A stretch of 63,935 nt of DNA, counting the filler, from Rhizaria sp. SCN 62-66 (lineage: Eukaryota): NCBI GenBank assembly GCA_001724265.1. It is 5 parts of 5 records of this genome, joined end to end, with 100 filler letters (N's around TTAATTAATTAA, not from the genome) between each part and the next. Parts side by side here need not be neighbours in the genome. Positions count along the whole stretch, not along the records: positions 11,894 to 23,110 come from MEDY01000681.1; 4 more parts are not named here. One strand, 5' to 3'. Made by a program: the position numbers and the translations under genes. This document shows positions 3,235-45,535 of the stretch, in pieces (position 1 is the first letter of the stretch; every line of letters begins with the position of its first letter). The notes below the pieces were generated by a model, which was given only the letters and a program-made list of their open reading frames with translations, was not told the origin of the DNA and did not search any database.

Positions 3235-6200
3235 ATGGGCCGATTCTGGGCCATTATCCTTCTTTGCTTGGTAGCTCAAGCATTCGCAACGGGAGTTGCG
3301 GAGCGTACGTTCTCTTTCCCAGCTTTCCTTGTCCTTTTCTATCTCTCCGTTGATGTCACATCCGCCGCTGACGCGATCCTGATGCACTGTGCCCTGCCCT
3401 TGCCCTTCGTTCTCCTTCGCCCCTCTCTCACTTCATCCAACTCACCACTCCACTTGCCTTCTCTCCCTCGTCTCTGTCACCCGCCTTTGCTCTTGTCACC
3501 TCCTGTACTCCGCACGCGTCTCACTCTCTCTCCCCCGTCCGCAGCTGAGCGCCCGGCGGAGACCACGTCGGTCACGACGACGCCGTCCCCAGCGGCCGCC
3601 GTGCCCGCCGCCCCCACCACAGCTGCTCCTGCCGCTGCCGCCGCCGCCGCTGCGAGCATCCCGATCGCGGGCGGCGGCCAGTCCCTGGCGCCCGGCGCGA
3701 GCCCGATCGGCTGGCGCCGCGGCGACGTGTGCTACAAGTGGGAGCGTCTGCGCTCTACGGCCCGCGCCGTGCAGCCGCTCGCGCTCGACATGCAGTCCCG
3801 CGCCAACATCCACACCTGGACCTGGGCCGACACCACCTCCGCAGCAAACAGCTCGACCGCCAACAGCAACGCCAACGCGAACAAGGTTGAGTCGGAGTTT
3901 GTGTTCGCGTGGGGCGGATGCGCGCCAGCCCACGGCGCGACGCGCTCGCTCGAGCACTGCTCGCCTGCTCTCGCGCGCTTCCACCCCTACACGCAGACGT
4001 GGGCGCCCGTCGATCTGGTCGACGCCGCCGTGCCCGAGCTTCCCGCGGCCAACTTCCGCGCCGAGGCCGCCGCGGGCGCGTTCCACGCCGAGTCCAACAC
4101 CTACTACCTCTTCGGCGGTAAGCGCGTTCCCTCCGCGGCCGACATCGCCGCGTCGGAGCACGCACAGGCCGCGCTGTCCAACGTGCTGTCGGCCATCGTC
4201 CCGGCGCCCTCGGCTGCGTCCTCCGCGCGCTACGCCGTGAAGCCTGTGCCGACCCGCGGCGCAGTCCCGCCCGCGCTCTCTGGCGCGCGCCTCGCTCCGG
4301 CCGGCTCTCACGCGCTCGTGCTCTTCGGCGGCTTCGCCGTCGACGGCGGGCTCAACGACGACATCTACGTGCTGCCCCTGCGCGGGCCCGCGGCATTCGA
4401 GTGGCGCAAGCTCCCGCGCCCCGTGCCCGCCCCCGTGTCGGGCGTCGACATCGACTCGATGGCCGTCGTCACCCCGGCCGGCCGCGTCGGCCACGTCTTC
4501 ACCACGCTCCCCGCGCTGCCCGCGGACCGCGCCGACGCCGCCGACGCGGACGCCGCGGACCGCACGCACCGCTTCCTGCTCCACGGCGGCTCCGACGGCG
4601 TCGCAACGCTGTTCGACGCCTGGGAGCTTCTGCTTACCGGTGACGTCGCAGGCCACCTGGGTCCCGCCAAGCCCGCCGGCGACAGCGCCGCGCCGCTCGC
4701 CACGTGGCGCCGCCTGACGCTGGGCACCGCGCCGGGCGCCACGGCCCCTGCGGCGCGCGCGCACCACTCGATCGCCTTCACTTCTTTCGCAGAGTTCGGC
4801 CCGTTCCGCGCACTCGTCTTCGGCGGCTGCGACGCCGCGCGCGACGCCTGCTTCGACGACGTCGCACTGCTCGACACCATCAACTGGCGTTGGGAGGTGC
4901 TCCCGGCGTCCCTCGCCGCCTCGGCCTACCCGCCCAGCACCAACTCCGCCGCCGCATCGGCCGCGACGGTGATCGGCGATGAGGCGTCTCTGCGCGGCGC
5001 CGGCGCGCTCGCCGCCGCAGCCGTCCGCGCGGCGCAGCGCCGCTCTCCGTCGGCGCGCCGCGGCGTCGCTATGGTGCCGACGCACGGCGGCGAGAAGGTC
5101 CTCTTCCTGGGCGGCTGCGCGCTCGCCGACTGCGCGGGCCCTGCCGAGGGCGCCGGCGCCGTCTTCTCGCTTGACCTCGACGCGCTGTGCCCGGCCTCGT
5201 GCGTCGCCGGCAACGGCGTCTTCGTCGAGGAGGCCCAGGTCGCCGCGCGCCTCCAAGGCGCCCCCGCGCGTCGCGTCGCGCTCACCGTCGGCCACGGCGG
5301 CGCTGGAGCCTCCGGCGCCGCGGCCACCACGCAGGTCTTCGTCGACATGGCTGAAGAGGAGGCCGTAGGTGCGCACTGCGCGTGCGGCGCGATGGCTCAC
5401 GGCAAGTTTTGTCAGCAGCTGCTCGACTGCCCCGCCGGGTGCTCGGGCCACGGCGACTGCGTGGGGCCCGCGGGCAAGAAGTTCTGCCAGTGCCGCGAGG
5501 GCTTCTGGGGCGCCGACTGCGCGACGCCGCAGTGCCGCCGCAACTGCTCCGGCCGCGGTGTGTGCCGCGCGGGGCCCAATCCGCTGTATGCGACCCTCAC
5601 GCCCTTTTCCTTCGCGTCCATGCTCATGGGCTCCGAGACCGGGCTCGTGGTGCTGGCGCCCGGCGTCAACACCAGCGCAGTCACCGGCAACGCCGTCGGC
5701 AACGGCACGCTCGCGGGCGCCAACGGCACCGCGGCCAACGGCACGGCGGGCGCCAACGGTACGGCCGCTGTGGCGGCGTCTGGCTCCGGCACGACCCCGG
5801 CCGCGCTGCAGGTGCTGCTGGGCCTGTCTGACCAGGCCAAGGCGCGCGCCAAGGAGATCTGGTTCAAGTCGCAGTCGCACTGCGAATGCTCGCAGGGCTT
5901 CTTCGGCAAGGAGTGCGCGCTCACCAAGGACGCCGCGCTCGAGACCGTGGGCGTGACGTGCCCCAACGGCTGCTCGGGCCACGGCCTGTGCGACCCCGTG
6001 GCCGGTACCTGCCAGTGCCAGGCTGGCTTCTCCGGGCTCGCCTGTAACATCGAGTGCCCGTCCGACTGCTCGGGCCACGGCGTGTGCTCGCACGACGGCG
6101 TGTGCAAGTGTGAGCCCGGCTTCGTCGGCCCGGACTGCTCAGTGCGTGAGTGCCTCGTCGACTGCTCCGGCAACGGCGAGTGCGACGACATCTCTGGCCA

Positions 6201-9200
6201 GTGTAAGTGCACGCCGGGCTGGGGTGGCGTCTTCTGCCAGCTCCGCACCGCGTGCTCGGGCCACGGCAAGTTCGTCAACGGCAAATGCGTCTGCGACGCC
6301 GGCTACGGCAACGCCGAGTGCTCGCAGCAGGTCACCTGCGCTGGCGGCTGCTCTGACCGCGGCACGTGTGTCGCCGTCGAGCCGCTCAAGCAGGAGTCGC
6401 GTCTGCTCGCCAAGCCTGTCGCCGACGCGGCCTCGCTAGCGCTGCTCGAGGAGGACCCGTCGGCCGCGCTGGTCGAAGTCCCCGACGGGACGGGCGAGGA
6501 CGGGCGTGTGCTGACCAAGCTGCAGCCGCTGGCCGCCGTGGTGGACCCGTCGGTGCCGATCGCGGGCCAGTGCCAGTGCGCGCGCGGCTGGCGCGGCGCG
6601 CAGTGCGCCCAGCGTGCGTGCGCGCACAAGTGCCGCCATGGCGAGTGCGACGACCTGGGTCAGTGCAAGTGCTGGCCCGGCCACACGGGCGTCGACTGCT
6701 CCATCCCTGTGCCGTGCCCCAACAACTGCACGTCGTCGACGTCGGCCAATGCCGCGGGCGCCAAGCTCGCCCCGCACGGCGTGTGCCAGGTCTCGGGCGT
6801 CTGCCTCTGCAACAAGGGCTGGTCGGGCACTGACTGCGCCACGGCCGACTGCCCCAACGGCTGCTCCGGCAAGGGCTCCTGCGCCGACGGACACTGCTAC
6901 TGCGACAAGGGCTTTTCGGGGCTTGACTGCTCCGTCGCCTGCCCCAAGGGCTGCTCGGGTCACGGCGAGTGCGTCACGGGCGGCAAGTGCGCCTGTTTCC
7001 CGGGCTACGAGGGCGCCGACTGCACGCTGCTTTCGCAGTGCCCGCGCTCTCTGACGGGCGGCGAGTGCTCCGGCCGCGGCTTCTGCGACCGCGCGCGCAA
7101 GACGTGTCTCTGCGAGCCCGGCTTCACGGGCGCCGACTGCAGCAAAACGGAGGGCGAGTGCGACGCCGACACGTGCGGCCACCATGGCACGTGCCGCAAC
7201 GGACAGTGCTTCTGCGACCTGGGCTACTCCGGCAAGCGGTGCGAGGTCGCCAACCAGTGCGTCGACGCGTGCAACGCGCGCGGTTTCTGCCAGCACGGCC
7301 GCTGCCACTGCTACCCGGGTTACGAGGGCGACTCGTGCGAGACGCCCGTGGCCGATACCACGTGCCCCAGCGGGTGCAACAAGAACGGCTTCTGCATGCA
7401 CGGCCGCTGCTTCTGCCAGGAGGGCTTCACGGGCCCCGACTGCGCCACGCCCGCCGGCTTCTGCGCCAACAACACGTGCTCCGGCAACGGCGTGTGCCGC
7501 CATGGCAAGTGCCACTGTCAGCCGGGCGCGTCGGGCGTGCGCTGCGAGCTAGGCGGCTGCCGCAAGTGCGAGGCCGGCCGCGGCATCTGCATCCTCGGCC
7601 AGTGCCACTGCCTGCCCGGCTTCACGGGGCCCGACTGCGCACAGGAGCTCACATGTCCCAACTCGTGCTTCGGCAAGGGCGTCTGCATTCTCGGCGCCTG
7701 CGCCTGCTTGCCCGGCTACTCGGGCCACGACTGCTCCTCTGCGACGGGCGCCCAACCTGCGCCGACTCCGACCGCCGTCACGACGGGCCCCGCGCTCACG
7801 TGCCCCAACGGATGCAACGGCAAGGGCGTGTGCCGCGACGGCAAGTGCTACTGCGTTGGCGGCTTCGAGGGCCTCGACTGCGGCATCGAGCGCGAGGCCG
7901 CGTGCCCGATGAACTGCGGCGGCACCCCGCCGCTGTACAATCAGCGCGGCACGTGCCGCTACGGCAAGTGCTGGTGCAAGCCCGGGTTCGAGGGCGTGGC
8001 GTGCGAGCAGGAGCTCTTTTGCTCCGACAAGTGCACGCAGAACGGCGTCTGCCACTACGGCGAGTGCCACTGCTTGCCCGGCTTCACCGGCAAGGACTGC
8101 GACGTGGTGCAGATGATCAACTCGACCATCTCGGCCTGGGCCGCCCCCGCCGTCGCCGCGGGCGCCGCCATCGCCGTCTCGGACGCCACGGCTTCGGCTG
8201 TCGCCAAGACTACGGCGTCGCCTGTGTCGACGTTCCTTGACACGTCTACCACGGTGCGCCCCGCGCTCACCCCGGCCGCCGTCTTTGCGCTCCTCGCCAC
8301 GTCCACCACAAATACCTCCACCACCACGGCCCCTGCGCCTGCGACTGCTTCGGCCGCCCACGCGAACGCGAATGCGAACGCCACTGCGAGCAACGCCACG
8401 AGCAGCAACGGTGCGGTGCTGACGTCTCCGTCCGCGTCGCCCACCGCGTCGACGGCCAACGTGACGTCGTCGCCGCTGACGGCCGAGCTGGCCGTGAAGC
8501 CGCTCTTCAACAACACTGAAGTTGCAAGCCTCGTCGCTGCGCTCAACGCCTCGGCCTACTCGCCCACGCACGACTCTGAGCAGCCCATCGGGTACTCGGC
8601 GACGGGCTTCGCGCTGCCCGAGACGCTCTCGGCGCTGGTCAAGCCCTGCGGCGGCGAGTCGCACGGCTGCGGTCAGCACGGGCTGTGCGTCGAGACGGCC
8701 GGACAGATGCAGTGCGTGTGCGAGCCTGGCTACACGGGACCGGACTGCTCGCTCGTCACTGGCGGCCAGCTCTGGCACCGCTGCCCGCAGGCCTGCAACA
8801 AGCGCGGGCTGTGTCTTCTGGGCCGTTGCTACTGCGATCTGGGCTTTCAGGGTCCCTCGTGCGAGGAGAAGATCGACATCCCGTGCCCAAACAACTGCTC
8901 CGGCTACGGCCAGTGCTCGTTCGGCAAGTGCTTCTGCCAGCCCGGCTTCGCGGGTCCCGCCTGCGACAAGATCATCCCCTGCTCCAAGCTCTGCGGCGCG
9001 CACGGCATCTGCTTCAAGTCCCAGTGTGTGTGCGCCAAGGGCTACGCTGGTGAGTTCTGCCAGCTGCCCTCGGTGCGCCTCGGCGCCGGCCCGTCGCTAC
9101 CCGCCGCGCCTATCGGCGACGCCTTCAACGACACGTCGCTCTTCCACCACTTTCTCGAGACGGGCGCGCGCGCCGCGACCGATGACGAAGGCCTCGCCGT

Positions 9201-9879
9201 CCTCGTCGAAGCCGACGCCGACGCCGACGCTGACGGCACCGCCGCGGCCCACGCCGACGCCGACGCCGACGCCGAGACAGCTGCGCTGTCGCTGCTCGAG
9301 ACTGCGTCGACCGCGGCTGCCGTGCAGGCCGCGGCGTCGCTGGCGCGTCTCCCTGTGTCGATCACGGTCGCGCCCGACGAGGCGTCCTCGGCCGCCTGCA
9401 CGGACTCGTGCGGCGCACACGGCCGCTGCATCGCGGGCCGCTGCTTCTGCGAGGCCGGCTTCGCGGGCGCGGCGTGCTCGGTGCGCGTCGACGAGACGAG
9501 CGCGCCCGCACTGCTGCTGCACAACGCCTACAACACGGCACAGCTCTCGTCCACGGGCGCCGACGCGACCGTGGGCTTGGGAGCGAGCGTGGCCGCTCTG
9601 GCCGAGCGCTGGCGCCGCCGCGTGTCGGGTGCGCTGGGCGCCACGGCCACGCTCGTGCCTCTGGGCGCGGACTGGACGCTGTCACCGCTCACGCTCGCCG
9701 CCGCCGCGCTCGCTGCGGGCGCGCTGGTCAACTATCTCATGCAACGCCTCGCTGAGAGCAAGACGGCGCGCCTCGAGGCCGCCGCGCGCGACACGCACAT
9801 GATGCCGCTGCTGCGCCCCGCCACCTCCTCCGCTGCCGCCGCTGCTGCTGCTGCGGCTGCTGTGGCTGAGGGCAAGTAA
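3235..9879 (+). CDS. Large cell-surface protein: signal peptide, Kelch-like repeats, about 30 tenascin-type EGF repeats, C-terminal hydrophobic anchor
   Basis: MGRFWAIILLCLVAQAFA signal peptide; Kelch-like LFGG/LHGG/VFGG/FLGG motifs; many CPxxCSGHGxC...CxCxxGFxGxDC repeats; C-terminal LTLAAAALAAGALVNYLM. Probable in-frame 240-nt intron 3305-3544 (GTACGT...pyrimidine tract...CAG). Ends TAA. Confidence 0.85.
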   Translation: MGRFWAIILLCLVAQAFATGVAERTFSFPAFLVLFYLSVDVTSAADAILMHCALPLPFVLLRPSLTSSNSPLHLPSLPRLCHPPLLLSPPVLRTRLTLSPPSAAERPAETTSVTTTPSPAAAVPAAPTTAAPAAAAAAAASIPIAGGGQSLAPGASPIGWRRGDVCYKWERLRSTARAVQPLALDMQSRANIHTWTWADTTSAANSSTANSNANANKVESEFVFAWGGCAPAHGATRSLEHCSPALARFHPYTQTWAPVDLVDAAVPELPAANFRAEAAAGAFHAESNTYYLFGGKRVPSAADIAASEHAQAALSNVLSAIVPAPSAASSARYAVKPVPTRGAVPPALSGARLAPAGSHALVLFGGFAVDGGLNDDIYVLPLRGPAAFEWRKLPRPVPAPVSGVDIDSMAVVTPAGRVGHVFTTLPALPADRADAADADAADRTHRFLLHGGSDGVATLFDAWELLLTGDVAGHLGPAKPAGDSAAPLATWRRLTLGTAPGATAPAARAHHSIAFTSFAEFGPFRALVFGGCDAARDACFDDVALLDTINWRWEVLPASLAASAYPPSTNSAAASAATVIGDEASLRGAGALAAAAVRAAQRRSPSARRGVAMVPTHGGEKVLFLGGCALADCAGPAEGAGAVFSLDLDALCPASCVAGNGVFVEEAQVAARLQGAPARRVALTVGHGGAGASGAAATTQVFVDMAEEEAVGAHCACGAMAHGKFCQQLLDCPAGCSGHGDCVGPAGKKFCQCREGFWGADCATPQCRRNCSGRGVCRAGPNPLYATLTPFSFASMLMGSETGLVVLAPGVNTSAVTGNAVGNGTLAGANGTAANGTAGANGTAAVAASGSGTTPAALQVLLGLSDQAKARAKEIWFKSQSHCECSQGFFGKECALTKDAALETVGVTCPNGCSGHGLCDPVAGTCQCQAGFSGLACNIECPSDCSGHGVCSHDGVCKCEPGFVGPDCSVRECLVDCSGNGECDDISGQCKCTPGWGGVFCQLRTACSGHGKFVNGKCVCDAGYGNAECSQQVTCAGGCSDRGTCVAVEPLKQESRLLAKPVADAASLALLEEDPSAALVEVPDGTGEDGRVLTKLQPLAAVVDPSVPIAGQCQCARGWRGAQCAQRACAHKCRHGECDDLGQCKCWPGHTGVDCSIPVPCPNNCTSSTSANAAGAKLAPHGVCQVSGVCLCNKGWSGTDCATADCPNGCSGKGSCADGHCYCDKGFSGLDCSVACPKGCSGHGECVTGGKCACFPGYEGADCTLLSQCPRSLTGGECSGRGFCDRARKTCLCEPGFTGADCSKTEGECDADTCGHHGTCRNGQCFCDLGYSGKRCEVANQCVDACNARGFCQHGRCHCYPGYEGDSCETPVADTTCPSGCNKNGFCMHGRCFCQEGFTGPDCATPAGFCANNTCSGNGVCRHGKCHCQPGASGVRCELGGCRKCEAGRGICILGQCHCLPGFTGPDCAQELTCPNSCFGKGVCILGACACLPGYSGHDCSSATGAQPAPTPTAVTTGPALTCPNGCNGKGVCRDGKCYCVGGFEGLDCGIEREAACPMNCGGTPPLYNQRGTCRYGKCWCKPGFEGVACEQELFCSDKCTQNGVCHYGECHCLPGFTGKDCDVVQMINSTISAWAAPAVAAGAAIAVSDATASAVAKTTASPVSTFLDTSTTVRPALTPAAVFALLATSTTNTSTTTAPAPATASAAHANANANATASNATSSNGAVLTSPSASPTASTANVTSSPLTAELAVKPLFNNTEVASLVAALNASAYSPTHDSEQPIGYSATGFALPETLSALVKPCGGESHGCGQHGLCVETAGQMQCVCEPGYTGPDCSLVTGGQLWHRCPQACNKRGLCLLGRCYCDLGFQGPSCEEKIDIPCPNNCSGYGQCSFGKCFCQPGFAGPACDKIIPCSKLCGAHGICFKSQCVCAKGYAGEFCQLPSVRLGAGPSLPAAPIGDAFNDTSLFHHFLETGARAATDDEGLAVLVEADADADADGTAAAHADADADAETAALSLLETASTAAAVQAAASLARLPVSITVAPDEASSAACTDSCGAHGRCIAGRCFCEAGFAGAACSVRVDETSAPALLLHNAYNTAQLSSTGADATVGLGASVAALAERWRRRVSGALGATATLVPLGADWTLSPLTLAAAALAAGALVNYLMQRLAESKTARLEAAARDTHMMPLLRPATSSAAAAAAAAAAVAEGK

Positions 9880-11703
9880 AGCACGTGTTTGTGCTATGCT
9901 GTGCCAAGGCGAAGGCTGAGGCTGAGGTTGAGGCTAGTGTGTTAGGTTGGTTGGTCGGTTGAATTAGTCGTGGTGGATGTTGGGGGTGGTGTGTGAGAGA
10001 GTGTGTGTGTGTGTAGTGGGGATGATTTGCACTGGTGAGTGTGAGTCAGTCAGAACAGGAGTACCTAGTGAGTGAATGCTGAGAGGCAAGAGGAGGAGGA
10101 TGATAGAATTTATTAGTCTGTCTGGCTGCACTGCACCGCGAAGACACGGACGCTGTTGTTGCGGCCCTGCGACACTGGCACTGACTGCAGAAACAAGCGG
10201 ATCGCTGATAACTGTGTGACAGTGGAGTGAACGCGGATGGGTGTTGAGCAGTGTGCTGTGTGGTGGGTGGGTTGGAGCGAAGTTGGTGTCGAATAGTTTG
10301 ATGCAGTGATGCAATCGACACGTGTAGGGCATGGGTTGGAGGTTTATTTCGCACAAAGTTGTTTGAACAAAAACAAACATAACTGAAGCAGCAGAGCTAA
10401 CTTCACCCAATACCAAAAAACAAACAAACAAATATATGATATACAAAACAATTCTTTATTTCTTTACCGCGATATTTGTTTTTCCTTTCGGTTCTCACAG
10501 CAAAACCATATATTCGGCGTGCTACATTTTGTCACTTTTCTGTACTACAAGCACTGACCAACCATAATGTCGCATGGGCTGACGGGCAACGTGCCTGTTG
10601 ACTCCGCATCTGTTGTGCGCCCAACCCAGTATTGTAATATACTGCACCTCCACTGTGGTGTGATTTGCCAAGCACGATCAGCGTGATTCTGCAGCGCATT
10701 AGGAGGGGCGACTGTTTTAAGCGACACCGTCGTTGTGCCGTTAGGTGGCTACACAGGGATAAAAAAGGCAAATTAGGCGTGAAATTTGAGTTTAATGAAA
10801 TAACTACAGTGTTACAGTTGAGAAAATTTATGCTATTTACTCGTTAGTAAATTATATGGCACTTTTACCTGTATTATCGATCAATATTTGGTGTAGCAAG
10901 TTGGTGTTCTGGATTCTTGACCAGGTTGTTGAGCGCACTACCGAGCTTGCGTCAATGACATATATCCGCCAAATTTCATCACGTGGCAGAGAAAGGATAC
11001 TAAAACAAAATATTTTGACACCAAAAAGCTTTATAATGACCTATCATACGATATCTTTATTGCACAAACCCCAAAGATTCCCTTTACTCCACCGACTCAC
11101 TTCATCCAATCTTACTCGGTCTATTCTATGCATCACCTAGCTGAAACTACACGCCTAGTAATAGTGACATTTTTTTAGTTCATGTCAAATCCCACTCAGG
11201 AAAATCCAGGCATTCCCTGTTTCAGCACACCCATCGCCTAGTCAGCGTGGTTACGGCGCGTTCATACCTCCCACCACGAAGTCCCTTCCTGTCTTGACAA
11301 CTCTCACGGCACCGCTGCCAGCCCTGCGCCCGCGTCCACGCGTACACACTGGTCTGATGTTGCGCACATGCCATCTTTGGCGGGCAACTCGTCCCTTTTC
11401 GATGCGGTTCAACCCGCAACTGCGAGACCCACCGACTCTACAGTCTCCGCAGCCAGCGCAGTTTCGCCTCCACCCTTTGCTCCGCTTCACCTCTTTACAA
11501 GGACCGAGATCCCTCTTGCAGGACTCCAACACGTAAACCGCCCGCTCGGCGACCACAAGTCTGCCGCGCACGCGCATGCGGGTGTGAGCTTCCTGCCTCC
11601 TGGCAACCCTAGCAGTCACAACAACGGCGATTGCGACGGCTACAGCGTCGACGTTGGCGAGGACAGCCACGCGACGATGTTTGGCCATAATACTCGTCAT
11701 GAG

Positions 11704-11793
11704 TAGGGTTATTAGGGTTATTAGGGTTATTAGGGTTATTAGGGTTATTAGGGTTATTAGGGTTATTAGGGTTATTAGGGTTATTAGGGTTAT
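11704..11793 (+). repeat. Telomeric repeat (TTATTAGGG)n, 10 perfect units at contig end
   Basis: TAGGGTTAT x10 runs up to the contig end, with the G-rich strand 5'->3' towards the end as expected for a chromosome terminus. Confidence 0.9.
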
Positions 11794-11893
11794 NNNNNNN
11801 NNNNNNNNNNNNNNNNNNNNNNNNNNNNNNNNNNNNNTTAATTAATTAANNNNNNNNNNNNNNNNNNNNNNNNNNNNNNNNNNNNNNNNNNNN
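11794..11893. other. Artificial contig linker (N run + TTAATTAATTAA + N run)
   Basis: Identical 100-nt spacer with stops in all six frames occurs four times in the window. Confidence 0.98.
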
Positions 11894-11922
11894 TAGCGCG
11901 GACGCAAAACTCACTTGCGAGC

Positions 11923-14900
11923 ATGACTGGCGCCACCGATGCGCCAAGTATCACACGTCTCGGTCGGCTCCTAGCGTCACGGCCCGTCTGGCCTTTCTCA
12001 GGAGGCGTTGACCTCGATGACAGTGACCCAAAAGAGCAAGCGATCCATAATACGCTTGCCAACACACCCTGGGTTGCTGCACGTGCTGCGTTTGAGGCAG
12101 CGACCACCGATGCGACTGCTGGGTTAGTACCGCGTGAGGTCACGTGCGAAGCTGATGTGCCGCTTGCCGCCTTGCTCTCTGCATCTAACGGCGACGGCAT
12201 TGTTGCTCAACTTGGCACGGTTGAGCTGTGCGGCGTGCGTTTCACGTGCACTGTGCGCCTCGGCTGCGGTTGCGGGGCTTCTCCATTGCTTTTGTCTCAT
12301 CAGGCACAACTGGAATCGAGTGAAGATGGAGCCGTTACGGACGCTTCTATTGAAGGCAAACCGTCCAGTGCAAACGCAGACGCAGGTTCAAGTCTTACAT
12401 CATCCGCTACAGCTTTGCCTCTGTGCAAATGTGCGCTTGTCGGTGAGGTCACGGCGACTATTGTGTCAACGAGTCTTGCTGCAAGCTACGACGCCTGCAA
12501 AGCACGTGCTAGGGCCGTTACCAAGCTTATTGATAGTCGTGACAGCAATGGCACTGAAGATGGCATTAATAATGACAACAAAGCGAATGATACTGACAAG
12601 AGCATCACTGCGACCGCTGAGTTAGGTAACTGTAGCAACGTTGAGAGTGGCACTGATTGTGAGTTTGGTACTGTACGTGCAACTTTTACAGTGCTGCGCA
12701 ATAATGACGGCAAAAGCAGCGGAGGAGCTCAATCTGACGATAACAACACCGACAACTCTGGTCTTGTTGCTTCAATGCTGGTGACAGATATCATGAAGCG
12801 CACAGCTGCTGTTGTCCTTGCACAGTTGACAGACGCGCAGGCAGTAGTGACAGCGTTTATGGATGCAAAATGGTGTGTACGTGCTTCTGTGGCGTTTCCA
12901 GATGTTTTCCATGAAAAACGCGCGATGCATCTGCTGGAGGAAGTTGTTCCGGTGGACTGGATTTTGAGGACTGAAAGTGCTGCTGCAGAGGCAGCTGCAA
13001 AGGCTGTTGCAAAGGCTGCTGCAAAGGCTGCCGCCAATGCCGCTGCAAAAGCTGCAGCAAAGGCTGCTTTAAAAGCTGCTGCTGTAAAGGCTGCTGATGA
13101 CTTCGCCGAAAGGACAGCTTTAGAAGCGGCCTTAGAGGCGCCATGGAGGTCAGTTGTACAGTCTGGTAATTGGGAGGCTGCATTTGATTCACACATTACT
13201 TGCAGCCTAAATAAATGTGGGTACCCTGGTAAGTACATCCAGTCTGCCACTTATGGAGTCCCACCTCCTGCGGCACTTACGCTACTGCAAACAAGGGCTC
13301 GCGAGCGCATCCTGGTATATGCACTACAGGAGCTGGAGGAAGAGCACATGACTTCAGACATGGTTATGAAATTTGGTTTTTGTCATGAAAGCAACACAGG
13401 CAACGACAGGTATCGCATGGTGATTCGTCTTAACGATAAGCTTTTTCCTCACAACGCAGCAAACTTCCGCACTGCTGCTCAAAGTAAAGCATTGGGCAGC
13501 TACTTCCACCAACGTTTTATCCCTTCAGGCCTGTCTCCGGGCACGCGTCTGCCGTTTGTTACATTGCATAATCGAAATCACGGCGGCTGCTCCTGTGCCT
13601 AGTTATGCATCACACTTCCTGAGACCGACATTGTTTACGGTGAGTACACGGCGCCCGCTGCCAGTGAAAACGTGACATATCCAGTCGGCACAGTGCTGAT
13701 GTATCCTCGAGAAGTTGTGCCTTGTGAGAAAATTTATGCTCATGGGGTGCGGGATTTATTGTGGTTTATTGTGTTCAAGCCTTGCGCTGCCACTTTGCTT
13801 CGCGGCGCGGTGCCTGTCGGGCGTGTCATGTCGTGTGTGAAGTTGGTGAGCGGGGAGGCTGCGTCAACAAGCGATAATAGTCTGCAATCCTTTGACGCAA
13901 CTGTGTTGCAGTTCTTTAAGACATATGCCCGCGCGAAGCCAGATGAAACGTGCGCAAGTGACAAATCGTACATGCAGTTCGGTTCGTTCAGGCCTTGGGC
14001 TAATATTGCGAAATGGCAGACAATTGCACAGTCTGGTAATTGGGAGGCCGCATTTGATTCACACATTGCTTGCAGCCTAGAGGAATGTGGTTACCCTCGC
14101 CGACAGGCGGAAGTGGCGTCATATGAGTACATTCCGTCTCCCGCTTATATGAGGGAATATGGAGTCCCACCTCCTGCGGCACTCACGCTACTGCAAACAA
14201 AGGCTCGCGAGCGCATCCTGGCATATGGTCTGCAGACGATGAGGAAATATAACATGACTTATGATGTGGTAATGAAATTTGTTTTGTGCCATGAAAGCAA
14301 CACTGGCAAGGACATGTTAATCCGAATTCGTCTTGACGACAAGCAGTTCCTTCATAACGCCGCACACTTCCGCACTGCAGCTCAAAGTGAGGCGTTGGGC
14401 AGCTACTTCCACCAATGTTTCGTTCCTTCAGGCCAATCCCCGGGCACGCGTCTGCCGTTTGTCACACTGCATCACCGAGATCACGGCTCCTCCTGTGCCC
14501 AGTCACCCATCACACTTCCTGATACCGACATTGTTTACGGTGAGTACACGGCGCCCGCTGCCAGTGAAAACGTGACATATCCAGTCGGCACAGTACTAAT
14601 GTACCCTCGCGAAGTTGTGCCTCGGAAGAAAACGAGTGTTTGGGGGACGTGTGATTCGCCGTGGTTTATTGTGTTCAAGCCTTGCGCTGCCACTTTGCTT
14701 CGCGGCGCGGTGCCTGTCGGGCGTGTGATGTCGTGTGTGAGGGGGGAAACTGCGTCAACAAGCAATAAGAGTGCGCATCCCTTTGATGCAAACGTGTTGC
14801 AGTCCTTTGAAGCTAACGCCAGTCCACTGCCAGATCAACAATGCAAATCTAACGGATGGTACATGTTGTTCGATTCGTTTAGGCCTCATTCCTTACACTT

Positions 14901-15492
14901 TGAGATTTTCGTTAAGACTCTTGCCAACAAGACGATCACCCTTGTTGTTGATCACTCCGACACCATTGAGACTGTTAAGTAGAAGATCCAGGACGCGGAG
15001 GGCATTCCCCCGGACCAGCAGCGCCTTATCTTCCAGGGCAAGCAGCTCGATGATGGCCGCACTCTTGCCGACTACAGCGTTCGAAAAGAAGATACTCTGC
15101 ATTTTATCCTCCGCCTGCGTGGTTCAAGTTTACGGTATAAGAACAATGTCAATGACATTACTGAAGAGGAAATCGAGGCATTCGAGTCACTCACACCTAA
15201 ACGATACCGATACAATTATAACGGCCCTGATACAGGTCCATATTGGGGTTTTATCGCTGAAGAAGCTCACGAGAAATTCCCGGAGTTATGCATTTATAAT
15301 ACTGATGGACAACCAGAAGCCTTTTTCTATGACAGTACTAACGCTTTGCTTGCGGCAAGTAATAAGAAACTTCGTGGGCGAGTGTCTGATCTTGAAAGTA
15401 AGAACAAAGACCAGAGTTTACGAATGGTAGAACTTGAAGCGCGACTGGCTCGGCTTGAAGCTCTCTGTGCAAGCTTGCACGGTCTCAATTAA
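11923..15492 (+). CDS. Chimeric ~1189-aa protein if TAG=Gln: unknown N-terminus, AAK repeat, two cyclophilin-like repeats, ubiquitin (G76S), peptidase S74/ICA chaperone with coiled coil; possibly 5'-partial
   Basis: ORFs 11923-13602, 13672-14982 and 14983-15492 share one frame broken only by TAG 13600-13602 and TAG 14980-14982. Ends TAA, followed by AATAAA. The frame is open back to the contig start. Confidence 0.75.
12981..13095 (+). repeat. Imperfect coding minisatellite (GCTGCAAAG-like) encoding AAAK repeats
   Basis: [39 protein letters not shown]. Confidence 0.8.
13151..14890 (+). repeat. Intragenic tandem duplication, two copies of ~870-900 bp (~13151-14000 and ~14021-14890)
   Basis: 13624-13694 is identical to 14524-14594. 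[27 protein letters not shown] and [25 protein letters not shown] each occur twice. Confidence 0.95.
14899..15126 (+). other. Ubiquitin domain within the chimeric ORF, with TAG at residue 28 and Ser at residue 76
   Basis: [27 protein letters not shown][TAG][48 protein letters not shown] is colinear with ubiquitin; K48 and K63 retained. Confidence 0.95.
15124..15492 (+). other. Peptidase S74 / intramolecular chaperone auto-processing (ICA) domain plus trimeric coiled coil
   Basis: SSLRYKNNV (S-D-x-R-x-K-like Ser/Lys dyad), [23 protein letters not shown], then LEARLARLE. Confidence 0.85.
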
Positions 15493-16065
15493 CTATAAAT
15501 AAAGTGTATCCTCAGTACAGAGCTACCAATACAGATATTATTAGTTCCACCACCTGAGTGATTAGGCATAATGATACGTCCAACTGATGTATTATAACTA
15601 GTAAGCAAACGAGTTTGTAGTAGCAGCTGACCACGAATGACAATCCCCACATGAAACACTTAAGTTTTGACGATTAACTCCAGTTCCCGTTGATATTATT
15701 GCACGCTTACTAGAGACAACTGTAAGACCAGTTAAGTTATAAGTCGCACCAAGAATCATAAAATAGTTCGATTCAACATCTATCGTATTTTCAATGCGCT
15801 GCCCGATGTTATATCTTCAGTGTTGAAGATACCCATTGTTGTGGTGAATCGCTGAAAAGGCTTTTCGACAGGTAGTGCTGGTCGGGTAATATTTGAGCTT
15901 GCACCGAATAGATATTAATATTCGTGCAACACTGCTGCCTTGCTACGTTGTTTCTTAAGACTTGCTTTACGAGGCATATGTGAATATATTGTAGGCGCAA
16001 TCGATTATTTATATGATTATTCATTTATCCGCACTTAGAGGATGCGGCAGGCCGTAGTCGACTGC

Positions 16066-17259
16066 TCAGCACCAGCGCCGCGCTTCGACGCCGCAATCGA
16101 AAATCTTCCTGCAGTTGTCCCATGCGAGCTTGGGAAGCCCAGAGAGAACCTTATTGGCTCCCCGAAAGAGCGTACCGAAGATGCTGCCGCCAATCGTGTT
16201 ACTCGACGTGCGAATAACGTGACTGCCAACCACCATGAGAGCGGTGCGGTCCTCAGAGGAAAGCCCGAGTGCATCAGTTACGGACACAATGCCATTGGAT
16301 CGGAACTCTAGATACAAATCGGTCTCAACAGCAGCCCAAAACTAGTAGTCAGCAAATCTGCCTGTGTCGCCCAGGTGCTGAGCCTTGGCGGACACGTATA
16401 GCGGAAGATTCGAAATAGTTGAAATAATGTAATGGTCGCCAAGAATGAGATCGTTCTGGAGATTAAAGCAAACAACGTAACCCGCCTTCTTTGCAATAGA
16501 CCAAGGTAGAGAGTACCCATTGCTAGCATTCATCTCATACAGGCTGAATTCAGACATACTGTTATTTGCATCACGCCCACCAATATTGATCTTCACGTCA
16601 GACAGAGGAGCATATGTGGACGGAGAAGTGCAGATCTTACGCGCGGTCATTGCTGTGCCGTCAGTTGCACCAGAGTAATGAGTATTGCGAGCACAAACCG
16701 CAGCAACAAAGATGCGCTTAGGGACAGCCTGAAGAGTAATTGGGGTCGACTTTACGTCATGGCGCTTTGGCTCATTAGCACCCGCGGCTGCGGCTCTGAG
16801 ACGCTCCTTCTTTGACCAATGAATATGCTGCTTCATCGTATGAGCATGAGGGAATGGTAGCCCGGTTTTGGAGTCGGTCAGAGTCTTCGTAACATCATCG
16901 GCAGGCTTGATGTAGCGGACGTACATACCAGGCTCGCTCGCGAAAGTTACGTTGTCGCGGCATATCGGACCATAACCAATCGCGTACCCCGTTAGCGTTA
17001 GAAGGTAATTGAAAAGGCGATTCCACTGAGAGTTAAACGTAATGTTGACGCAAGGCTGGCGTAGGTTATCAATGCCTAGACCAGTGGCAGAGCTGGCAAA
17101 GACTGACCAAGGAAGAGCCATGTAACCGTCGATATCGTAAGTTACATCAAGATTGACTTCGGCAGCCGCCGCCACATCGGTAGTGTGAACTACCACTGAA
17201 GCGCAAGTGCCAAACTTCGAATGCGCGTCAGCAGGGCTGCCAAATGGAGATGCCATCAT
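16066..17259 (-). CDS. Virophage (Sputnik-type) major capsid protein homologue, N-terminally truncated; ~397 aa reading TAG 16344-16342 as Gln
   Basis: Motif order matches virophage MCP as I recall it: GIDNLRQPCVNITFNSQWNRLF, PGMYVRYIKP, ITLQAVPKRIFV, SLYEMNASNGYSLPWS, GYVVCFNLQNDLILGD. After the TAG, the in-frame ORF 16066-16317 gives TIGG|SIFGTLFRGANKVL (diglycine site plus amphipathic tail). Confidence 0.75.
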
Positions 17260-17290
17260 TGCGATGTTAACTTTTATTATAAGTCAAAAA

Positions 17291-17316
17291 TGAGAACAGT
17301 CAATTGACTGTTCTCA
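17291..17316. repeat. Perfect 26-bp palindrome
   Basis: TGAGAACAGTCAA/TTGACTGTTCTCA is its own reverse complement. Confidence 0.9.
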
Positions 17317-17620
17317 ATGTAAATACAACTTTTAGACGAAAAAAAATACCAGAAGTTTAAAACAACAACAAATTACAAATATAAATAACAAAGACATTGA
17401 TATATGCAGAATATGTCTTTCTTAAATGTTTAGTTATGAGCATATGTGACTCAGTTCTAGTTTTGCCCATGATAGCATGCAACCAGTGTAAGGTTAGAAA
17501 GATTACTAGTAGCAAAACTTAAGCTTGAATCAAAAAAGAGACGCTGTATTCATATTTTATTTATCATATAAGGTTTGTTACTCAGATTTTATCAATCAAT
17601 CCTCACAGGGTTGTTTTCTT

Positions 17621-20600
17621 TTACTGCAGTTGCGCGAGTGCGGCCATCTGCTCCGCAGCGTCACACGCCTTGCCGACGACGCGCTCGATGTGTTCGCGCT
17701 CCCACACGGGGACGTGGTTGCATGGCGAGTCCATGAGCACGCGCACCGTGGCACGCACTTCGCTCGTGCTCGCGCCGGCGTCGCTCATGAGCAGCCCGGC
17801 CTCGAGCAGCACAGGCAGCAGCCACTGGCTCATGACGCTGCCGGCGGCCTGCTCCTCGGCCGTCAGCGCGCAGTCGGCCGCGGTGACGATGGGCGTCGCT
17901 CTCATCGCGCTCGCGTGCGCCTCGTGCTGCGCGGCCAGGCGCGACATCACGGCGGCCTCGGAACGCTCCAGCTCCTTGTTGGTCGTCACGCCCGTCGCCA
18001 TGCGCGGCCGCGGCGCCGGCACGATCACCGTGCGCTGCTGGCGCCACAGCGCCTCGGCGGCGCGCACCTGCGGCTTGGACTGCACGGCCATGAGCACAGC
18101 CGCGCGGGCTGGGTCACGCAGCCCCCACTGGCGCACCTCCTCAGTGACCGCAAGCACCCACAGCGGCGGCTCGCGGAAGATAGGATGTTCGCGGAAGAGC
18201 TGCTGCTGCGCCAGCGTCTCGGACGGCACGTCGCTCCAGGAGGACGACATGGCCACCGACACGGGGTCGATGACGTACCGCGCCGCGGACCGCGCGACGA
18301 CGGCGGCGGCGGCGGACGCGGCCTCGGCTGCCGTCGCCGCCACGGCTTCGGCGTGTGCGCGCGCGAGGTTGCTCTCCTTCTCCTTGCGCAGGCGGTCGAG
18401 CCGCTCCGCTTCATCGCGCTCGCGGTCCTTGCGCCCGAAGAAGATGCCGCCGGACTTCTTCTTCGCCGGCTGCGCGCCCGCCGGCAGCGTCGGCGCCGCA
18501 ATGCCCACCGACGGCACGCCGGCAGCTGCCGCGACGGCGTTGGCCAGCGCGGCGGCCGCGGCGGCCGCGGCGGCAGTCGTGCCCGCGGGCGCGGCCGTGA
18601 CCAGCGCCGACGCCTTGACGGTGGCCAGGAAGGCTGCGGCGTCCTCCGAGATGACGCGGCGCACCGCGCGCGGCGGGTCGTAGCGGATCGCCGGGCGGAA
18701 CGTCACGAACTCCTGCGCCGCGGCCCGCAGCGCGATCGCCGCCGGCCAGTCGCGCGCGGCCAGCGCGTGGTCCAGCAGCACCAGCGACAGGTCCAGCAGG
18801 GACAGAAACGGCAGCGGCGCGAGGCGCAGCAGGCGCGGGACCTGCGGCTGCAGCAGGCCGGCCGACGGCTGCGGCGCGCTGCCGTTGCCGCTGCCGCCGC
18901 CGTTGCCGTTGGAGGACGCGTTGCTGACGCTGGGCTGTAGCGCATGGCCGGTGGCGTCGGTCGCGCCAGGCGCGGCGAGCGCCGCTGCCGCCGCGGCCGC
19001 GGCTGCAGCCTGCGACTGCTGGAAGAGCTCGAGGCACGGCGCGTGACAGCACGCGGGCGGCGTGGCGGTGGCAACCTGCGCGGCGGCGGCGCGCGCCCCG
19101 GCCAGCGCGCGCGCGGCGGCACGGTGCTGCGCCATGAGGTCGACGCGCGGCGCCACGGGGCCCAGCGGCGCAGTCTCGGCCGTGACGCCTGCGGCGAGGT
19201 CGGCCGACGAGTACACCACGTGCATGCGGTCGCTGTGCCGGTACCAGACGCCGCTGCTGCCGCTGCCGGCGCTCGAGACGGGCGTGGAGCCGCCCGACTG
19301 CGACTGGTGGCTCCACGCGCCGAAGCACAGGCTGAGCTCGGGCGACAGCGGCGGCGCGGCGCCCTGGCCGGCCCACGGCAGCGCGAACGCCCCGCCCGCA
19401 GCGGCTGCGGCGGCCGCGGCGCCGGCGAGCCCTGGGTAGGGCGCGGCGGGCGCGTAGGACGTCATGTACGCGTAGGGCGGCAGCGCGGCCGACTGCGACA
19501 CGGCGGCCGTGGGCGACAGGGTGGACCAGAGCGGCAGCAGCGTCGCCTCGGTCTCGCACGGCGCCAGCGCTCTCGCCAGGCCCGACGTTGAGTGCGCCGC
19601 GGCGTGCGCGGCTGCCGCGGCCGAGGACGTGGGGATAAAGGAAAAGCCGTACGGGCCCGGCAAGCGGTGCAGTCCGCCCACCGCGATCGAGTCCAGCAGC
19701 AGCGGCAGCGCACCGAAGCCAGCGCTCGCGCCCACGCCCGCGTTGGCGGCCGCAGCGGCGGCGGCGTTGGTGGTGGAGTAGGATAGAGCGTGCGACAGCG
19801 TGGTCGAGTGCCCGGCGCCGGCGGCTGAAAGGCCGCTGTGGCTGCGGCTCCAGACGTCGGCGCCGACGCCCGTGACGGTGCCGACCAGCGCGGGCGCCAT
19901 GAAGGCGTCGAGGCTGGGCCGCGTGTAGAGCGCCACGCCCGCGGTTGCCGCGGCAGCGGCGGCGCGCAGCACTGGCGGCAGGTGGCCCGTGCCCTGGCCC
20001 GCGAAGGCCGCGTCGGGCGGCGCCAGAAGCGGGAACGCGGAGGCCGCGGCCAGTGGCGCGGGCGAGAGCAGCGGCGGCGCCGCGGGCAGCCACGCCGGCA
20101 GCGAGCGTGCAAGGTGCGAGTGCGACAGCTTGACCACCTGCGTCGACGACGGCGGCAGCGGCGCCAGCGCGTACGCGCAGCCGGGCGTATGCGGCACACC
20201 GCTGTTGTTGTTAGCCTGCTGTCCCGAGAGCGCCTGCGCGAGGAAGGCGGGGCAGCCGAGCCAGCCCGCGGCGGGGTCAGGCCCCAGCGTGGCACAGTGC
20301 GCGCACGCGAAGCCGTGGTACTCCCAGTTCGCCACTGTGCCCGCCACGCCCACAGCGTCATCACCAGCGCCAGGGCCGGCGCCAGGGAATAGGGCGGGCA
20401 GCGGCAGGCAGCGCGCAGTGGAGGCCGCAAGCGACGCGGCGGCGGCGGCGCGCGCCTCGGCCGGGGCCGCGGGGTCAAACAGACAACCGTTCCACTTGCC
20501 ACCATAACCGCCGCCGCCGCTGTTGCTACCGCTGAGCAGCGCGGACGCGGTGACGGCACCATGCGCGGCGGCTGAGGTGGGCCGGCAGGGCGGGAAGCGC

Positions 20601-22795
20601 GGCGCGGCGGCGCGCGCGAGCGCGGCTTGCACAGCCTCCTCAGCCTGCCGCGCGACGCCCGCGATCGAGTGCGTGGCCAAGATGGGGTACGCGAACGGCA
20701 GGAACTGCGTGCTGGCCAGCGCCAGCGGCTGCAGCAGCACGTCCACGGCGCGCGCGCGCAGCGTGGGAGACGCAAAGGCGGCGCGTGCGAAGGCCATGTC
20801 GCTGTCTGACAGCGGGCGGTTGAGGAACACGCGCGAGACGAGCGCGTCGGCACGCTCCGTCTCTTCTTGCAGCTGGATCGCGCGGCGCTGCGCCTCGCGG
20901 GCCGCGTCGCGCTCGGCCACGGCTGCGCTGGGCGGCGCAGCAGCGGTCGCGGCTGCAGAGGCGGATGCGGCGGCGGCGGCGGGCGCGGGGGCGGGGGGCG
21001 CGGGCGCGGCGGCGGCGGCGACTGCAGCGGAGGCGGCGGCCGAGACCACGGGCCCCATGCCCGACGCCGCCGCGGCCGCGGAGATGGCGGCGGCGCGCTG
21101 CGCAAGCGTCATGGTGGCCGCAGAGCTGGGCGCGGCAGCCGTGAGTGAAAGCGGGCCGCCGCGCGGCGGGATCGGCGGCAGGCCGTTGCTGCCGCTGCCG
21201 TGCGCGCCGGCGGCGGCCGCGGCGCCCGCCGAGGCGAGCAGCGAGGGCGAGATGACGTCGCTGGCGACGAGCCCCAGCCCGGCGATGTGGCTGTGCGCGG
21301 GCCCGGCCTCGCTCTGCGAGTGCGAGCGCAAGCGCGTGGCGCTGGCGCTGCGGCTGGGCACCTGGCTGGGCGGCTGCGAGGGCGCGCGCGAGGACGCCGC
21401 ACTGGGCTGCACGCTGCCCGCCGCGCTCGGCTGCAGCGCGTCGCCGCCCGTTTGGCTTTGCGTGCGCGTGTGGCCCAGCGCCGGGCTGGAGCCCGAGGCG
21501 GTGGAGAGCGTCACGGACGCCATCAGGGACGCGGGTTGCGCGCACTCGAGGCAGAACGGGCACTCGCCCGCCGCGGCCGCAGCAGCGTCGCTCTCGTCGC
21601 TGTTGTCGTCGGAATCTGAGTCGGAGTGGGAGCCCGAGGCGGAGGAGAACGAGGCCGAGGCTCTGGACGAGCATTCCGAGGACGACGATGATGACGACGA
21701 CGGCGATGAGGACGATGACGCCGCGGCGGCGGCGCGGCGGCCGTTGCGGCGCGCCATGGCGACGAGCCCCGCCGACGAGGCCGCGGCGGCCGTGGCCGGC
21801 ACGCCCGCTGCCGAGAGCGCGATGCGCAGCGCAAGCGCGCGGCCGCGGTGGCGGCGGCGGCGGCGGTCGCGGCGGCGCGTGCGTGCGCTGAGCGCGTCGG
21901 ACCACTCCACGCCTGCGTCGCTGCAGTCGCCGCCGCATTTGGCAGCAGCAGCAGCAGCGGCGGCGGCAGCGGCAGCGGATGACGAGCCGGGGACGGCGGC
22001 GCCGGAGCGCGCGGTGAAGGGCGACACGGCCGGCGCGAGCGTCAGCGTGAGCGCGCGCGCCGGCGGGCTGCGCGGCCGGGCGCCGACCGCGCTGACACCC
22101 GGCTTGGCGCCGCGGCGGGCGCGCGCCTTGGCCTCGGCCTCGACGCGCGCGGCGTCAGAGCCGGCCGAGGAAGAGTCGCTCCAGTCCACGTCGCTGAGCG
22201 CGGCGTCGGACGACAGCGACGACTGCGAGTCGGCGTCGTCGCGGTGCGCGGGCGCCAGGCCCAGCCGCACGGCGAGCCCCGTCCACGCGCGCTCCTCGAC
22301 GCGACCCAGCCGCGCGTGCGTCGCCGCGTTAGTGTGCGCCGGGGGCCCGTTCACAACCAACGCGCCGACGCCGTTGCCGTTGCCGGCGCTGGTGTTAGAG
22401 CTGGCGTGCGCATGCGCGTGCGCGTTGGCGGCCGCGCAGCCGGGGCAGGGGTGCGTGATGGCGGCGACAAGCGCGACGTCCGCGGCGGCCACGGCGGCGT
22501 CTAACATCGACTCAGCCTGCGCGCGCACGCCGGACGCCGACGCCGTCGCCAGCGTCGCGGCCGCGGCAGCCGCGGCGGTCGTGCCCCCGCTCATGCCCCG
22601 GCGGCAGCCGCTGCTGTGCGGCGCGGCGCCGGAGGCGCGGCCAGACCTCTTGGCGCCCTTGCCGCTGGCGCGGCTGCCGGTGCTGCCGGTGCTACCGGTT
22701 GAGAAGCGAGCGCTGCGGCGGCCGCCGCGGCGGCGGCCCGTCTCGCTCGCGCTGCCCGCGCTGGCGTTGCTGAAGCTGCGGCGGCGGCCACTCTT

Positions 22796-22832
<37 letters not shown>

Positions 22833-23110
22833 GCGCTGTTGGCGTGGTTGTCGTTGTCGTCGCCAGATGCAGTGTCGTCGTCGTTGTCGTCGTCGCTGCT
22901 CTGGTAGCCGTCCTTGTCGCCGCCCGCGCCGCCGCTGCCGCCGACGCCGCCGTCATGCTGGCCGCCGCCGATAGGCTTGAGCGCACGGCCCTTGCCCTCG
23001 GCGTCGCCGTCGTCGTCGGCCTTAGGGACCTCGGCGCCCTCGGCGATGTTGCCGCTGCCCCCACTCGCGCGCGCGCCCGCACTCGCGCCAGCGGCCCCCG
23101 CGCGCCCGCC
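17621..23110 (-). CDS. Large Ala-rich protein, 5'-partial; C-terminal region possibly SBF2/DENN-associated
   Basis: The frame of ORF 17621-22594 stays open to the contig edge with host-like codon usage. LFREHPIFREPPLWVLAVTEEV resembles the HPxW...FWE motif of SBF2-type domains (weak). Ends TAA. Confidence 0.6.
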
Positions 23111-23210
23111 NNNNNNNNNNNNNNNNNNNNNNNNNNNNNNNNNNNNNNNNNNNNTTAATTAATTAANNNNNNNNNNNNNNNNNNNNNNNNNNNNNNNNNN
23201 NNNNNNNNNN
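23111..23210. other. Artificial contig linker
   Basis: Same N-TTAATTAATTAA-N spacer. Confidence 0.98.
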
Positions 23211-45141: not shown

Positions 45142-45241
45142 NNNNNNNNNNNNNNNNNNNNNNNNNNNNNNNNNNNNNNNNNNNNTTAATTAATTAANNN
45201 NNNNNNNNNNNNNNNNNNNNNNNNNNNNNNNNNNNNNNNNN
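45142..45241. other. Artificial contig linker
   Basis: Same spacer. Confidence 0.98.
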
Positions 45242-45535
45242 CCCGTGAAAGAGGCGGTGCCCGTCAACCTCAGGTGCCGAAGCGTACTGGAGAAGGCGAA
45301 ATTCCCGACGATCAACATGACGGCGTCGACGTGCATGGACTTGGTGATGCTGCATGAGCTCATGGTCACCTGCAGGTGGACCGACGAGCAGGATCCCTAC
45401 TACGGTGCGCTTCTCGCGTACCTCGCGGAGGTCGGTCCCGCGACGGGGCACACGGCCAGCGCGGCGCTCGAAATCCTCAACACCGCCACTAAGCAGGTGC
45501 AGCAGCCTGCGAAGAAAGCGAGGACGACAAACTAA
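45242..45535 (+). CDS. 3' end of an unknown ORF (5'-partial)
   Basis: Open from the contig start to TAA, coding-like composition, basic C-terminus (PAKKARTTN). No family recognised. Confidence 0.4.
   Translation, partial: PVKEAVPVNLRCRSVLEKAKFPTINMTASTCMDLVMLHELMVTCRWTDEQDPYYGALLAYLAEVGPATGHTASAALEILNTATKQVQQPAKKARTTN

Follow-up and report, generated by a model that had tools for sequence, protein, structure and literature searches.

Genes for the major capsid protein (MCP) of virophages and polinton-like viruses are very common, in integrated form, in protist genome assemblies, where thousands are known and where they often appear as lone matches riddled with stop codons (PMC10120064). Among the elements described there, those of Streblomastix strix use the TAA/TAG=Gln code of their host, a precedent for an element and a host sharing the same non-standard code (PMC10120064). 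A code in which UAG is read as glutamine and UAA serves as stop is described for Iotanema spirale (PMC5304391) and for the phyllopharyngean ciliates Hartmannula sinica and Trochilia petrani (PMC11687900), and TAG=Gln, 'code 15', is reported in crAss-like phages (PMC9523058). The nearest virophage precedent that we found is an ochre-suppressor transfer RNA (tRNA) in one virophage clade (PMC6905037). As for the capsid protein itself, the mavirus MCP is cleaved after residue 516 and at three other positions, and three of these four cuts follow GG (PMC6048507). Here we analyse a stretch of 63,935 nucleotides (nt) from the assembly of Rhizaria sp. SCN 62-66 (GCA_001724265.1), hereafter the window, in which the minus strand of the contig at 11894-23110 (MEDY01000681.1) carries what is, in all likelihood, a non-functional remnant of a Sputnik-type virophage MCP gene that was once integrated in a protist nuclear genome.

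The minus-strand frame 17259-16066 encodes 397 residues followed by a terminal TGA, and its single internal stop is a TAG at codon 306 (16344-16342), lying between ADY and FW. The initial annotation of this DNA, made from the sequence without database searches, had described a frame interrupted by one TAG alone, and re-translation agrees, recovering all of the MCP motifs quoted there in the order given as well as the in-frame TGA upstream, which is located at 17286-17284. TAA and TGA codons number 12 and 24 in the two remaining frames of this segment, so that the open frame is not a chance occurrence.

A search of 5.8 billion proteins identified, with the locus's own record excluded, seven relatives with 51-75% identity over 70-98% of the frame, five of them full length (569-619 residues). 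Such relatives are rare, given that an exhaustive search of 1.84 billion representative proteins yielded 19 proteins at an expectation value (E) of 0.001 or below. When 20 further relatives were scanned against Pfam, MCP_V20_C (PF22031) was found at E<=0.01 in 17, eight of which reached the curated cut-off, and the cut-off of Sputnik_MCP_1st (PF21915) was reached by two of the 20. Two proteins, P0015 and P0022, match unrelated Pfam families only and were left out, together with the short entries, of the profile that we built from 15 relatives; P0016 has no Pfam match. In the PDB, this profile finds residues 28-486 of Sputnik V20 (3j26, E 1.9e-37), then the mavirus MCP (6g45 at E 8e-17 and 6g43 at E 1.2e-10), the following matches lying at E of about 0.4. 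The AlphaFold model of P0002, the closest full-length relative (predicted local distance difference test score, pLDDT, 72.6; predicted template modelling score, pTM, 0.74), has the double jelly-roll fold by Foldseek comparison: its best match is again Sputnik V20 (3j26_A, E 5.7e-27, template modelling score, TM, 0.74 by target), followed by the mavirus MCP at TM 0.63-0.64 and then by capsid proteins of PBCV-1, iridovirus and Faustovirus. The profile and structure comparison proposed in the initial annotation was thus carried out through the relatives, with Sputnik V20 first and the mavirus MCP next, and the identification of a Sputnik-type virophage MCP, which had been made from motifs, turned out to be right. 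Judged from sequence and from the modelled fold of its relative, the locus is a Sputnik V20-type double-jelly-roll virophage MCP gene.

The gene is incomplete at both ends. The part that remains corresponds to approximately residues 180-562 of the full-length relatives and spans the closing part of the first jelly-roll, the second one, and the opening of the C-terminal domain, where the IGG/S motif lies (the slash marking the predicted cleavage point). The relatives of 607-619 residues align to the window from residues 180-192 on, and the homology ends at about 17268. By this alignment about 180-190 N-terminal residues are absent, and with them the greater part of the first jelly-roll domain, Sputnik_MCP_1st (residues 48-283 in P0009), so that the copy is a fragment of a family member. 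The N-terminal loss had been recognized in the initial annotation, which put its extent too low, at 140-150 residues. The ATG at 17259 is an internal methionine that is present in P0002 too and not the native start. At the other end, the family similarity of the frame ends after KIFD, and the last nine codons are out of the native frame. A deletion of about 80 nt (78-83), not a multiple of three, lies beside 16095-16099 and takes about 27 codons out of the C-terminal domain (in the blastn comparison with the metagenomic locus L001, introduced below, the window skips L001 positions 1676-1753), displacing the native last 19-20 residues of the MCP and its TAA stop to another frame. The similarity to L001 extends about 60 nt beyond the MCP stop, to 15973. 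The IGG/S motif, proposed earlier as the C-terminal maturation site, is present and aligns with the MGGS region of mavirus, in keeping with a predicted cleavage of the GG/X type; a second motif of the relatives, VGG/S, falls within the deleted part.

The remaining sequence has diverged in a manner that sets it apart from its relatives. It differs at 34 of the 201 columns that are invariant in the seven relatives (16.9%), whereas the same test applied to each relative in turn gives 0-8 changes at 126-175 columns (0-4.6%). The 34 private changes are distributed across the entire frame; the frameshifted tail accounts for three of them, R>C replacements for four, and changes of the C>T or G>A type for many others. 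Such a pattern suggests that purifying selection on this copy has clearly been lost, and this argues against a domesticated gene. The alternative 'relic or domesticated fragment' put forward in the initial annotation can accordingly be narrowed: the truncation, the deletion and the private changes all favour a relic, and domestication appears unlikely. The third-codon-position content of guanine plus cytosine (GC) is 0.53 in the relic, 0.52-0.57 in the free relatives and 0.62-0.90 in the host genes.

These observations can be accommodated in a simple scenario. A virophage MCP gene would have become part of the nuclear genome of a protist with high GC and few introns, DNA of which occurs in metagenomes from wastewater and bioreactors. 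As a working viral gene, it would have encoded a protein of about 610 residues with a double jelly-roll, assembling into trimeric capsomers, and, by analogy with mavirus, a virophage cysteine protease would have trimmed this MCP after GG motifs in the C-terminal domain. After integration, the first 180-190 or so codons and the rest of the virophage would have been lost, leaving about 1.3 kb of the gene; the 3' deletion of about 80 nt would have shifted the frame, and invariant residues would have been replaced at a high rate. Given the truncation, the frameshifting deletion and the many replaced invariant residues, the copy would now drift as a pseudogene and make no capsid.

Several findings fit this scenario less comfortably and weigh against it. 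The relic protein taken alone matches MCP_V20_C at E 0.0021 and 18 bits, the cut-off being 27, and the AlphaFold model of the fragment, based on eight sequences, is poor (pLDDT 43.2). A frame of 397 codons that is free of TAA and TGA and holds a single TAG is somewhat tidy for an old pseudogene. An in-frame TAG is present in two of the four readable metagenomic MCP genes and in both genes upstream of such MCPs, and an inherited sense codon is therefore possible. The metagenome run that bridges the relic and the host gene, X2, is possibly the source sample of the window, so that its bridging contig is not independent and counts as support rather than proof. Finally, among the contigs listed, none is identical to the window over 16049-16728, the segment with the TAG and the deletion junction; the metagenome matches discussed here are all taken from the listed pieces, and the listing contains at least 5,688 more. 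The searches with the relic's single sequence returned no match in the PDB and three weak matches in PHROGs (E>=0.039). Genomic context for the relatives was found in none of 94 candidate stretches in IMG/VR and in none of 58 in the prokaryote genome collection, and their nucleotide context comes from five short metagenome loci, L001-L005.

Could the join to host DNA, or the lesions themselves, be products of assembly? An abundant free virophage might have been wrongly joined to host sequence, or many near-identical copies might have collapsed into a false consensus that introduced the TAG and the deletion; the window does consist of contigs joined through spacers, the matching runs are metagenomes, and many stop codons in protist endogenous viral elements are reported to be assembly artefacts (PMC10120064). 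In the listed matches, moreover, contigs 92-94% similar to 15813-16048 and 16436-16752 reach a word depth of 400 in X2 and 60-84 in X4, compared with 22-35 for the window-identical contigs of X2, a hint that these samples contain a close relative that is abundant or present in many copies. The relic and the host gene at 17621 nevertheless lie on the same 11.2-kb contig (11894-23110), with the host gene's stop about 350 nt from the truncated 5' end of the relic, and the separate Logan assembly of X2 contains a 1554-nt contig identical to the window over 17017-18570, that is, 243 nt of the relic, the spacer and 950 nt of the host gene. Two contigs of run X1 are identical to the window over 17017-17624 and 17629-18570, and the word depths of the window-identical contigs of X2 are alike, at 22-30 for the island side and 23-35 for the host side. 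The linkage of the relic to this host gene, asserted in the initial annotation, is thus supported by one contig and by the bridging contig of X2, and the spread of the 34 private changes over the whole frame is that of a diverged single copy, not of a mosaic, all of which makes an assembly artefact very unlikely. Another view, adopted in the initial annotation, is that the host translates UAG as glutamine, in which case the frame would be continuous and possibly an expressed or domesticated capsid-derived gene. Virophages rely on host translation, the relatives use in-frame TAG, the two low-GC genes of this contig are interrupted by TAG alone, and none of nine host-type genes taken from the window's five contigs (those for an EGF-rich protein, a TLC-domain protein, a Beclin homologue, a calpain-domain protein, a NIPA transporter and four proteins without a family) ends in TAG; their stops are TAA in seven cases and TGA in two despite a GC content of 58-76%, a count that, with n=9, an ordinary preference for TAA could give as well. 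These nine genes contain, however, 336 CAG and 58 CAA codons and not a single in-frame TAG among 12,627 codons, whereas in the codon-biased MCP genes of the relatives TAG amounts to about one third of the CAA count; the tRNA scan found no tRNA gene in the 64-kb window; the relatives have E or D at the site of the relic's TAG; and a read-through product would lack about 60% of the first jelly-roll domain, would end in a frameshifted tail and would carry changes at 16.9% of the invariant sites. A host reading UAG as glutamine is not supported by these data, and an expressed or domesticated product of this kind is very improbable. As to expression, none of the listed runs with this stretch is an RNA run: X5, labelled RNA-Seq, carries the mark 'probably DNA', and most of its coverage falls on the ubiquitin stretch of the neighbouring gene.

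A different question is whether the TAG alone, rather than the state of the gene, has an older origin, namely as a glutamine codon that was inherited from a virophage lineage with UAG as a sense codon and UAA as stop and was preserved in the fossil. Here the metagenomic relatives are informative. In L002, whose MCP is 63% identical, the gene upstream of the MCP (2-1888) is an open reading frame of 628 codons with seven TAG, no TAA or TGA, and a TAA end, the other frames holding 28 and 61 TAA or TGA codons; the corresponding gene of L004 (1-1140) has two TAG, no TAA or TGA, and likewise ends in TAA, and the two share a conserved C-terminal tail (FKFLKNK and, farther on, KVKMTIYRK) downstream of their TAGs. 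The MCP of L003 (3-1754) has one TAG in an otherwise intact frame of 583 codons, and that of L005 (1-849) has a TAG where P0004, which is 97% identical, has Q, and all others have TGG. All four metagenomic MCP genes whose ends can be read terminate in TAA. The metagenomic relatives thus very probably translate TAG, to judge from their reading frames, and glutamine is the simplest reading of these codons. Within the window, the two low-GC genes together have three in-frame stops, every one of them TAG; of the two in the gene next to the relic, the TAG at 14980 is CAG in every listed contig that covers it (4, 3, 5 and 3 contigs from four runs; none of the listed contigs is identical to the window over 14933-15032), and the TAG at 13600 aligns with CAG in the gene's own second repeat and with K in its paralogues. 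Most of this can also be read in the opposite sense. CAG>TAG is the commonest nonsense route too; we estimate that under decay rich in C>T, with CAG outnumbering CAA, about half of all new nonsense codons would be TAG, so that three of three is not unusual, and that with so many C>T private changes about one nonsense codon is expected in the relic anyway. Furthermore, the residue facing the relic's TAG in the relatives is E or D, not Q; TAG is rare in the MCP genes themselves (one in 1,792 codons of L001, L003 and L004, and one more in the 283 codons of L005); and the tRNA scans found no tRNA, suppressor tRNAs included, in the window or in L001-L005. We therefore hold that the relic's TAG is rather probably a lesion acquired after integration, whereas descent from a TAG-decoding lineage is a real possibility that we nonetheless place on the lesser side; of the two options named in the initial annotation, viral adaptation and drift, adaptation gains indirect support from the TAGs and the TAA ends of the relatives, while damage after integration stays the favoured account of this particular codon. 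Under either reading of the TAG, the MCP gene is dead. One can go farther and propose that the relic is the trace of an amber-recoded clade of Sputnik-type virophages, in which UAG would be translated, probably as glutamine, and UAA would be the stop, the TAG of the relic and the two of its neighbour being inherited or tolerated sense codons. The virophage lineage may indeed be recoded at TAG only, as far as its genes can be read, and yet the full proposal, extended to all three codons of the window, strikes us as doubtful. If it were true, either this GC-rich protist decodes UAG but makes next to no use of it in the host genes themselves, or the suppressor tRNA comes from a helper giant virus, much as recoded bacteriophages provide one, in which case the virophage would be translatable only during co-infection. 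In full-text searches we found no report of a TAG-recoded virophage, and a paper on wastewater giant viruses contains none of five terms related to codes, although supplements might list codes or tRNAs.

Table 1. Features of the relic, its contig and the joins between contigs (positions along the window)
Feature	Position	Strand	Basis and remarks
MCP relic, main body	16096-17268	-	tblastn with P0002 residues 180-562, 74% identity; other relatives 51-66%
In-frame TGA, upstream limit of the frame	17284-17286	-	sequence; homology stops at about 17268
In-frame TAG	16342-16344	-	codon 306; relatives have E or D here; L001 has GAC
Native C-terminal tail (ending SKRGAGAEQSTTACRIL) and native TAA (16037-16035)	16035-16094	-	in another frame; tblastn with P0003 residues 596-614 gives 16094-16038, frame -1
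MCP 3' flank resembling that of a metagenomic relative	15973-16034	-	blastn of 15973-16099 against L001 1881-1754, 81% identity
AT-rich spacer	17287-17620		about 340 nt; 28% GC over 17300-17599; separates the relic from the stop of the host gene
Host-type gene	17621-22594	-	1657 residues, 76% GC, Ala-rich, stop TAA, no Pfam family
Neighbour gene	11894-15492	+	50% GC; 5' end cut by the contig start; two TAGs (13600-13602, 14980-14982); stop TAA
Artificial spacers, N44-TTAATTAATTAA-N44	11794-11893, 23111-23210, 45142-45241, 55103-55202		eight runs of 44 N in four pairs

The window comprises five contigs (1-11793, 11894-23110, 23211-45141, 45242-55102 and 55203-63935) separated by artificial spacers, each with the 12-mer TTAATTAATTAA at its centre (at 11838, 23155, 45186 and 55147, with none expected by chance). 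Features are not readable across the spacers, and the one at 11794-11893 is the left limit of the relic's contig. A single low-GC island at 9880-17620 was considered and rejected, as this same spacer places 9880-11793 on another contig. That first contig ends, after its low-GC stretch, in ten perfect tandem copies of TAGGGTTAT (11704-11793), a 9-nt unit with TTAGGG-like letters and a telomere-like look that was not seen at the other contig ends. On the relic's own contig, a perfect 24-nt palindrome, GAGAACAGTCAA/TTGACTGTTCTC, occupies 17293-17316, less than 30 nt from the end of the virophage homology. The stretch 15600-18400 is found mainly in three metagenome runs from two studies (wastewater and bioreactor), with shares of 0.66-0.71. 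In X4, a 789-nt contig aligns to 17280-17781 starting at its position 291, and the 290 letters before that are absent from the window, which hints that a related strain carries a different sequence to the left of 17280. As to the host's affinity, the Beclin homologue leads loosely to protein clusters in which Oomycota are the most frequent taxon, and a protein search returned the window's own protein and one NCBI protein at 59% identity; a thraustochytrid, considered early on, finds no support in these searches.

The neighbour gene at 11894-15492 is convergent with the relic side, so that its 3' end faces the 3' flank of the relic. It belongs to a B-box/coiled-coil family and encodes a C-terminal domain of about 290 residues twice, then ubiquitin (E 1.6e-25) and Peptidase_S74 (E 6e-8). 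An identical database protein, P0029, extends it by 116 N-terminal residues, among which are a coiled coil and a partial B-box zinc finger (E 1.4e-4, short of the cut-off). Its paralogues, of 740-877 residues and 67-79% identity, are encoded on contigs of up to 144 kb and form a multi-copy family; none of 131 candidate stretches in IMG/VR contained this family. The architecture is TRIM-like, with the duplicated C-terminal domain fused in frame to ubiquitin and to the self-cleaving chaperone domain Peptidase_S74.

The relic itself is solitary. A search of the window for further copies and companion genes, as suggested in the initial annotation, found neither: there is no second MCP copy within the window, and the 59 six-frame open reading frames from its low-GC stretches include no penton, ATPase, protease, integrase or polymerase family. 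The sole match among these 59 is a papain-family fragment (Peptidase_C1, E 5e-21, profile positions 124-217 of 220) that stands alone at 61103-61465 on the plus strand, within a 44%-GC stretch of the last contig and hence on another contig than the relic; it is probably another gene relic. No terminal inverted repeats were found, the inverted-repeat search giving GC-rich low-complexity pairs only. The locus thus has neither the companion core genes nor the terminal inverted repeats of an intact endogenous virophage.

Taken by itself, the relic is one more endogenous virophage fragment and an ordinary fossil. It nevertheless shows that a GC-rich protist from wastewater has been in contact, itself or through its ancestors, with a Sputnik-type virophage, and hence probably with a giant virus as well; that a giant virus figured in the past of this host is probable by what is generally true of virophage biology, the window showing no giant virus. 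The in-frame TAGs of the relatives, if they reflect real recoding, would mark the first TAG-only recoded virophage clade that we have found and would offer a handle on the translator, either a variant-code host or a helper virus carrying a suppressor tRNA.

How, then, does the locus compare with the systems already described? The metagenomic relatives resemble the organisms and phages with UAG=Gln codes in their in-frame TAGs and TAA ends, but those are cells or bacteriophages. The elements of Streblomastix strix differ in that recoding here, if any, would concern TAG only, TAA being kept as stop, and the host genes have no sense TAG. The mavirus MCP (PDB 6G43-6G45) shares the fold (TM 0.64), and its C-terminal domain is matched at E 7e-10, with the IGGS of the relatives falling on MGGS; it is, however, more distant than Sputnik V20, and the present locus has no protease gene and has lost the tail with the second VGG/S. 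Sputnik V20 (PDB 3J26; PF21915 and PF22031) belongs to the same family, has the same fold and is the best match by both profile and Foldseek, although the identity at the structure level is 16%, the copy in the window lacks about 180-190 N-terminal residues and part of the tail, and it resides in a cellular genome, whereas V20 is encoded in a virion genome. A parallel in kind is offered by the endogenous virophage and polinton-like elements of protists, among which lone MCP genes with stops in nuclear genomes are likewise found, the relic differing from them in that its contig has non-virophage DNA to either side of it.

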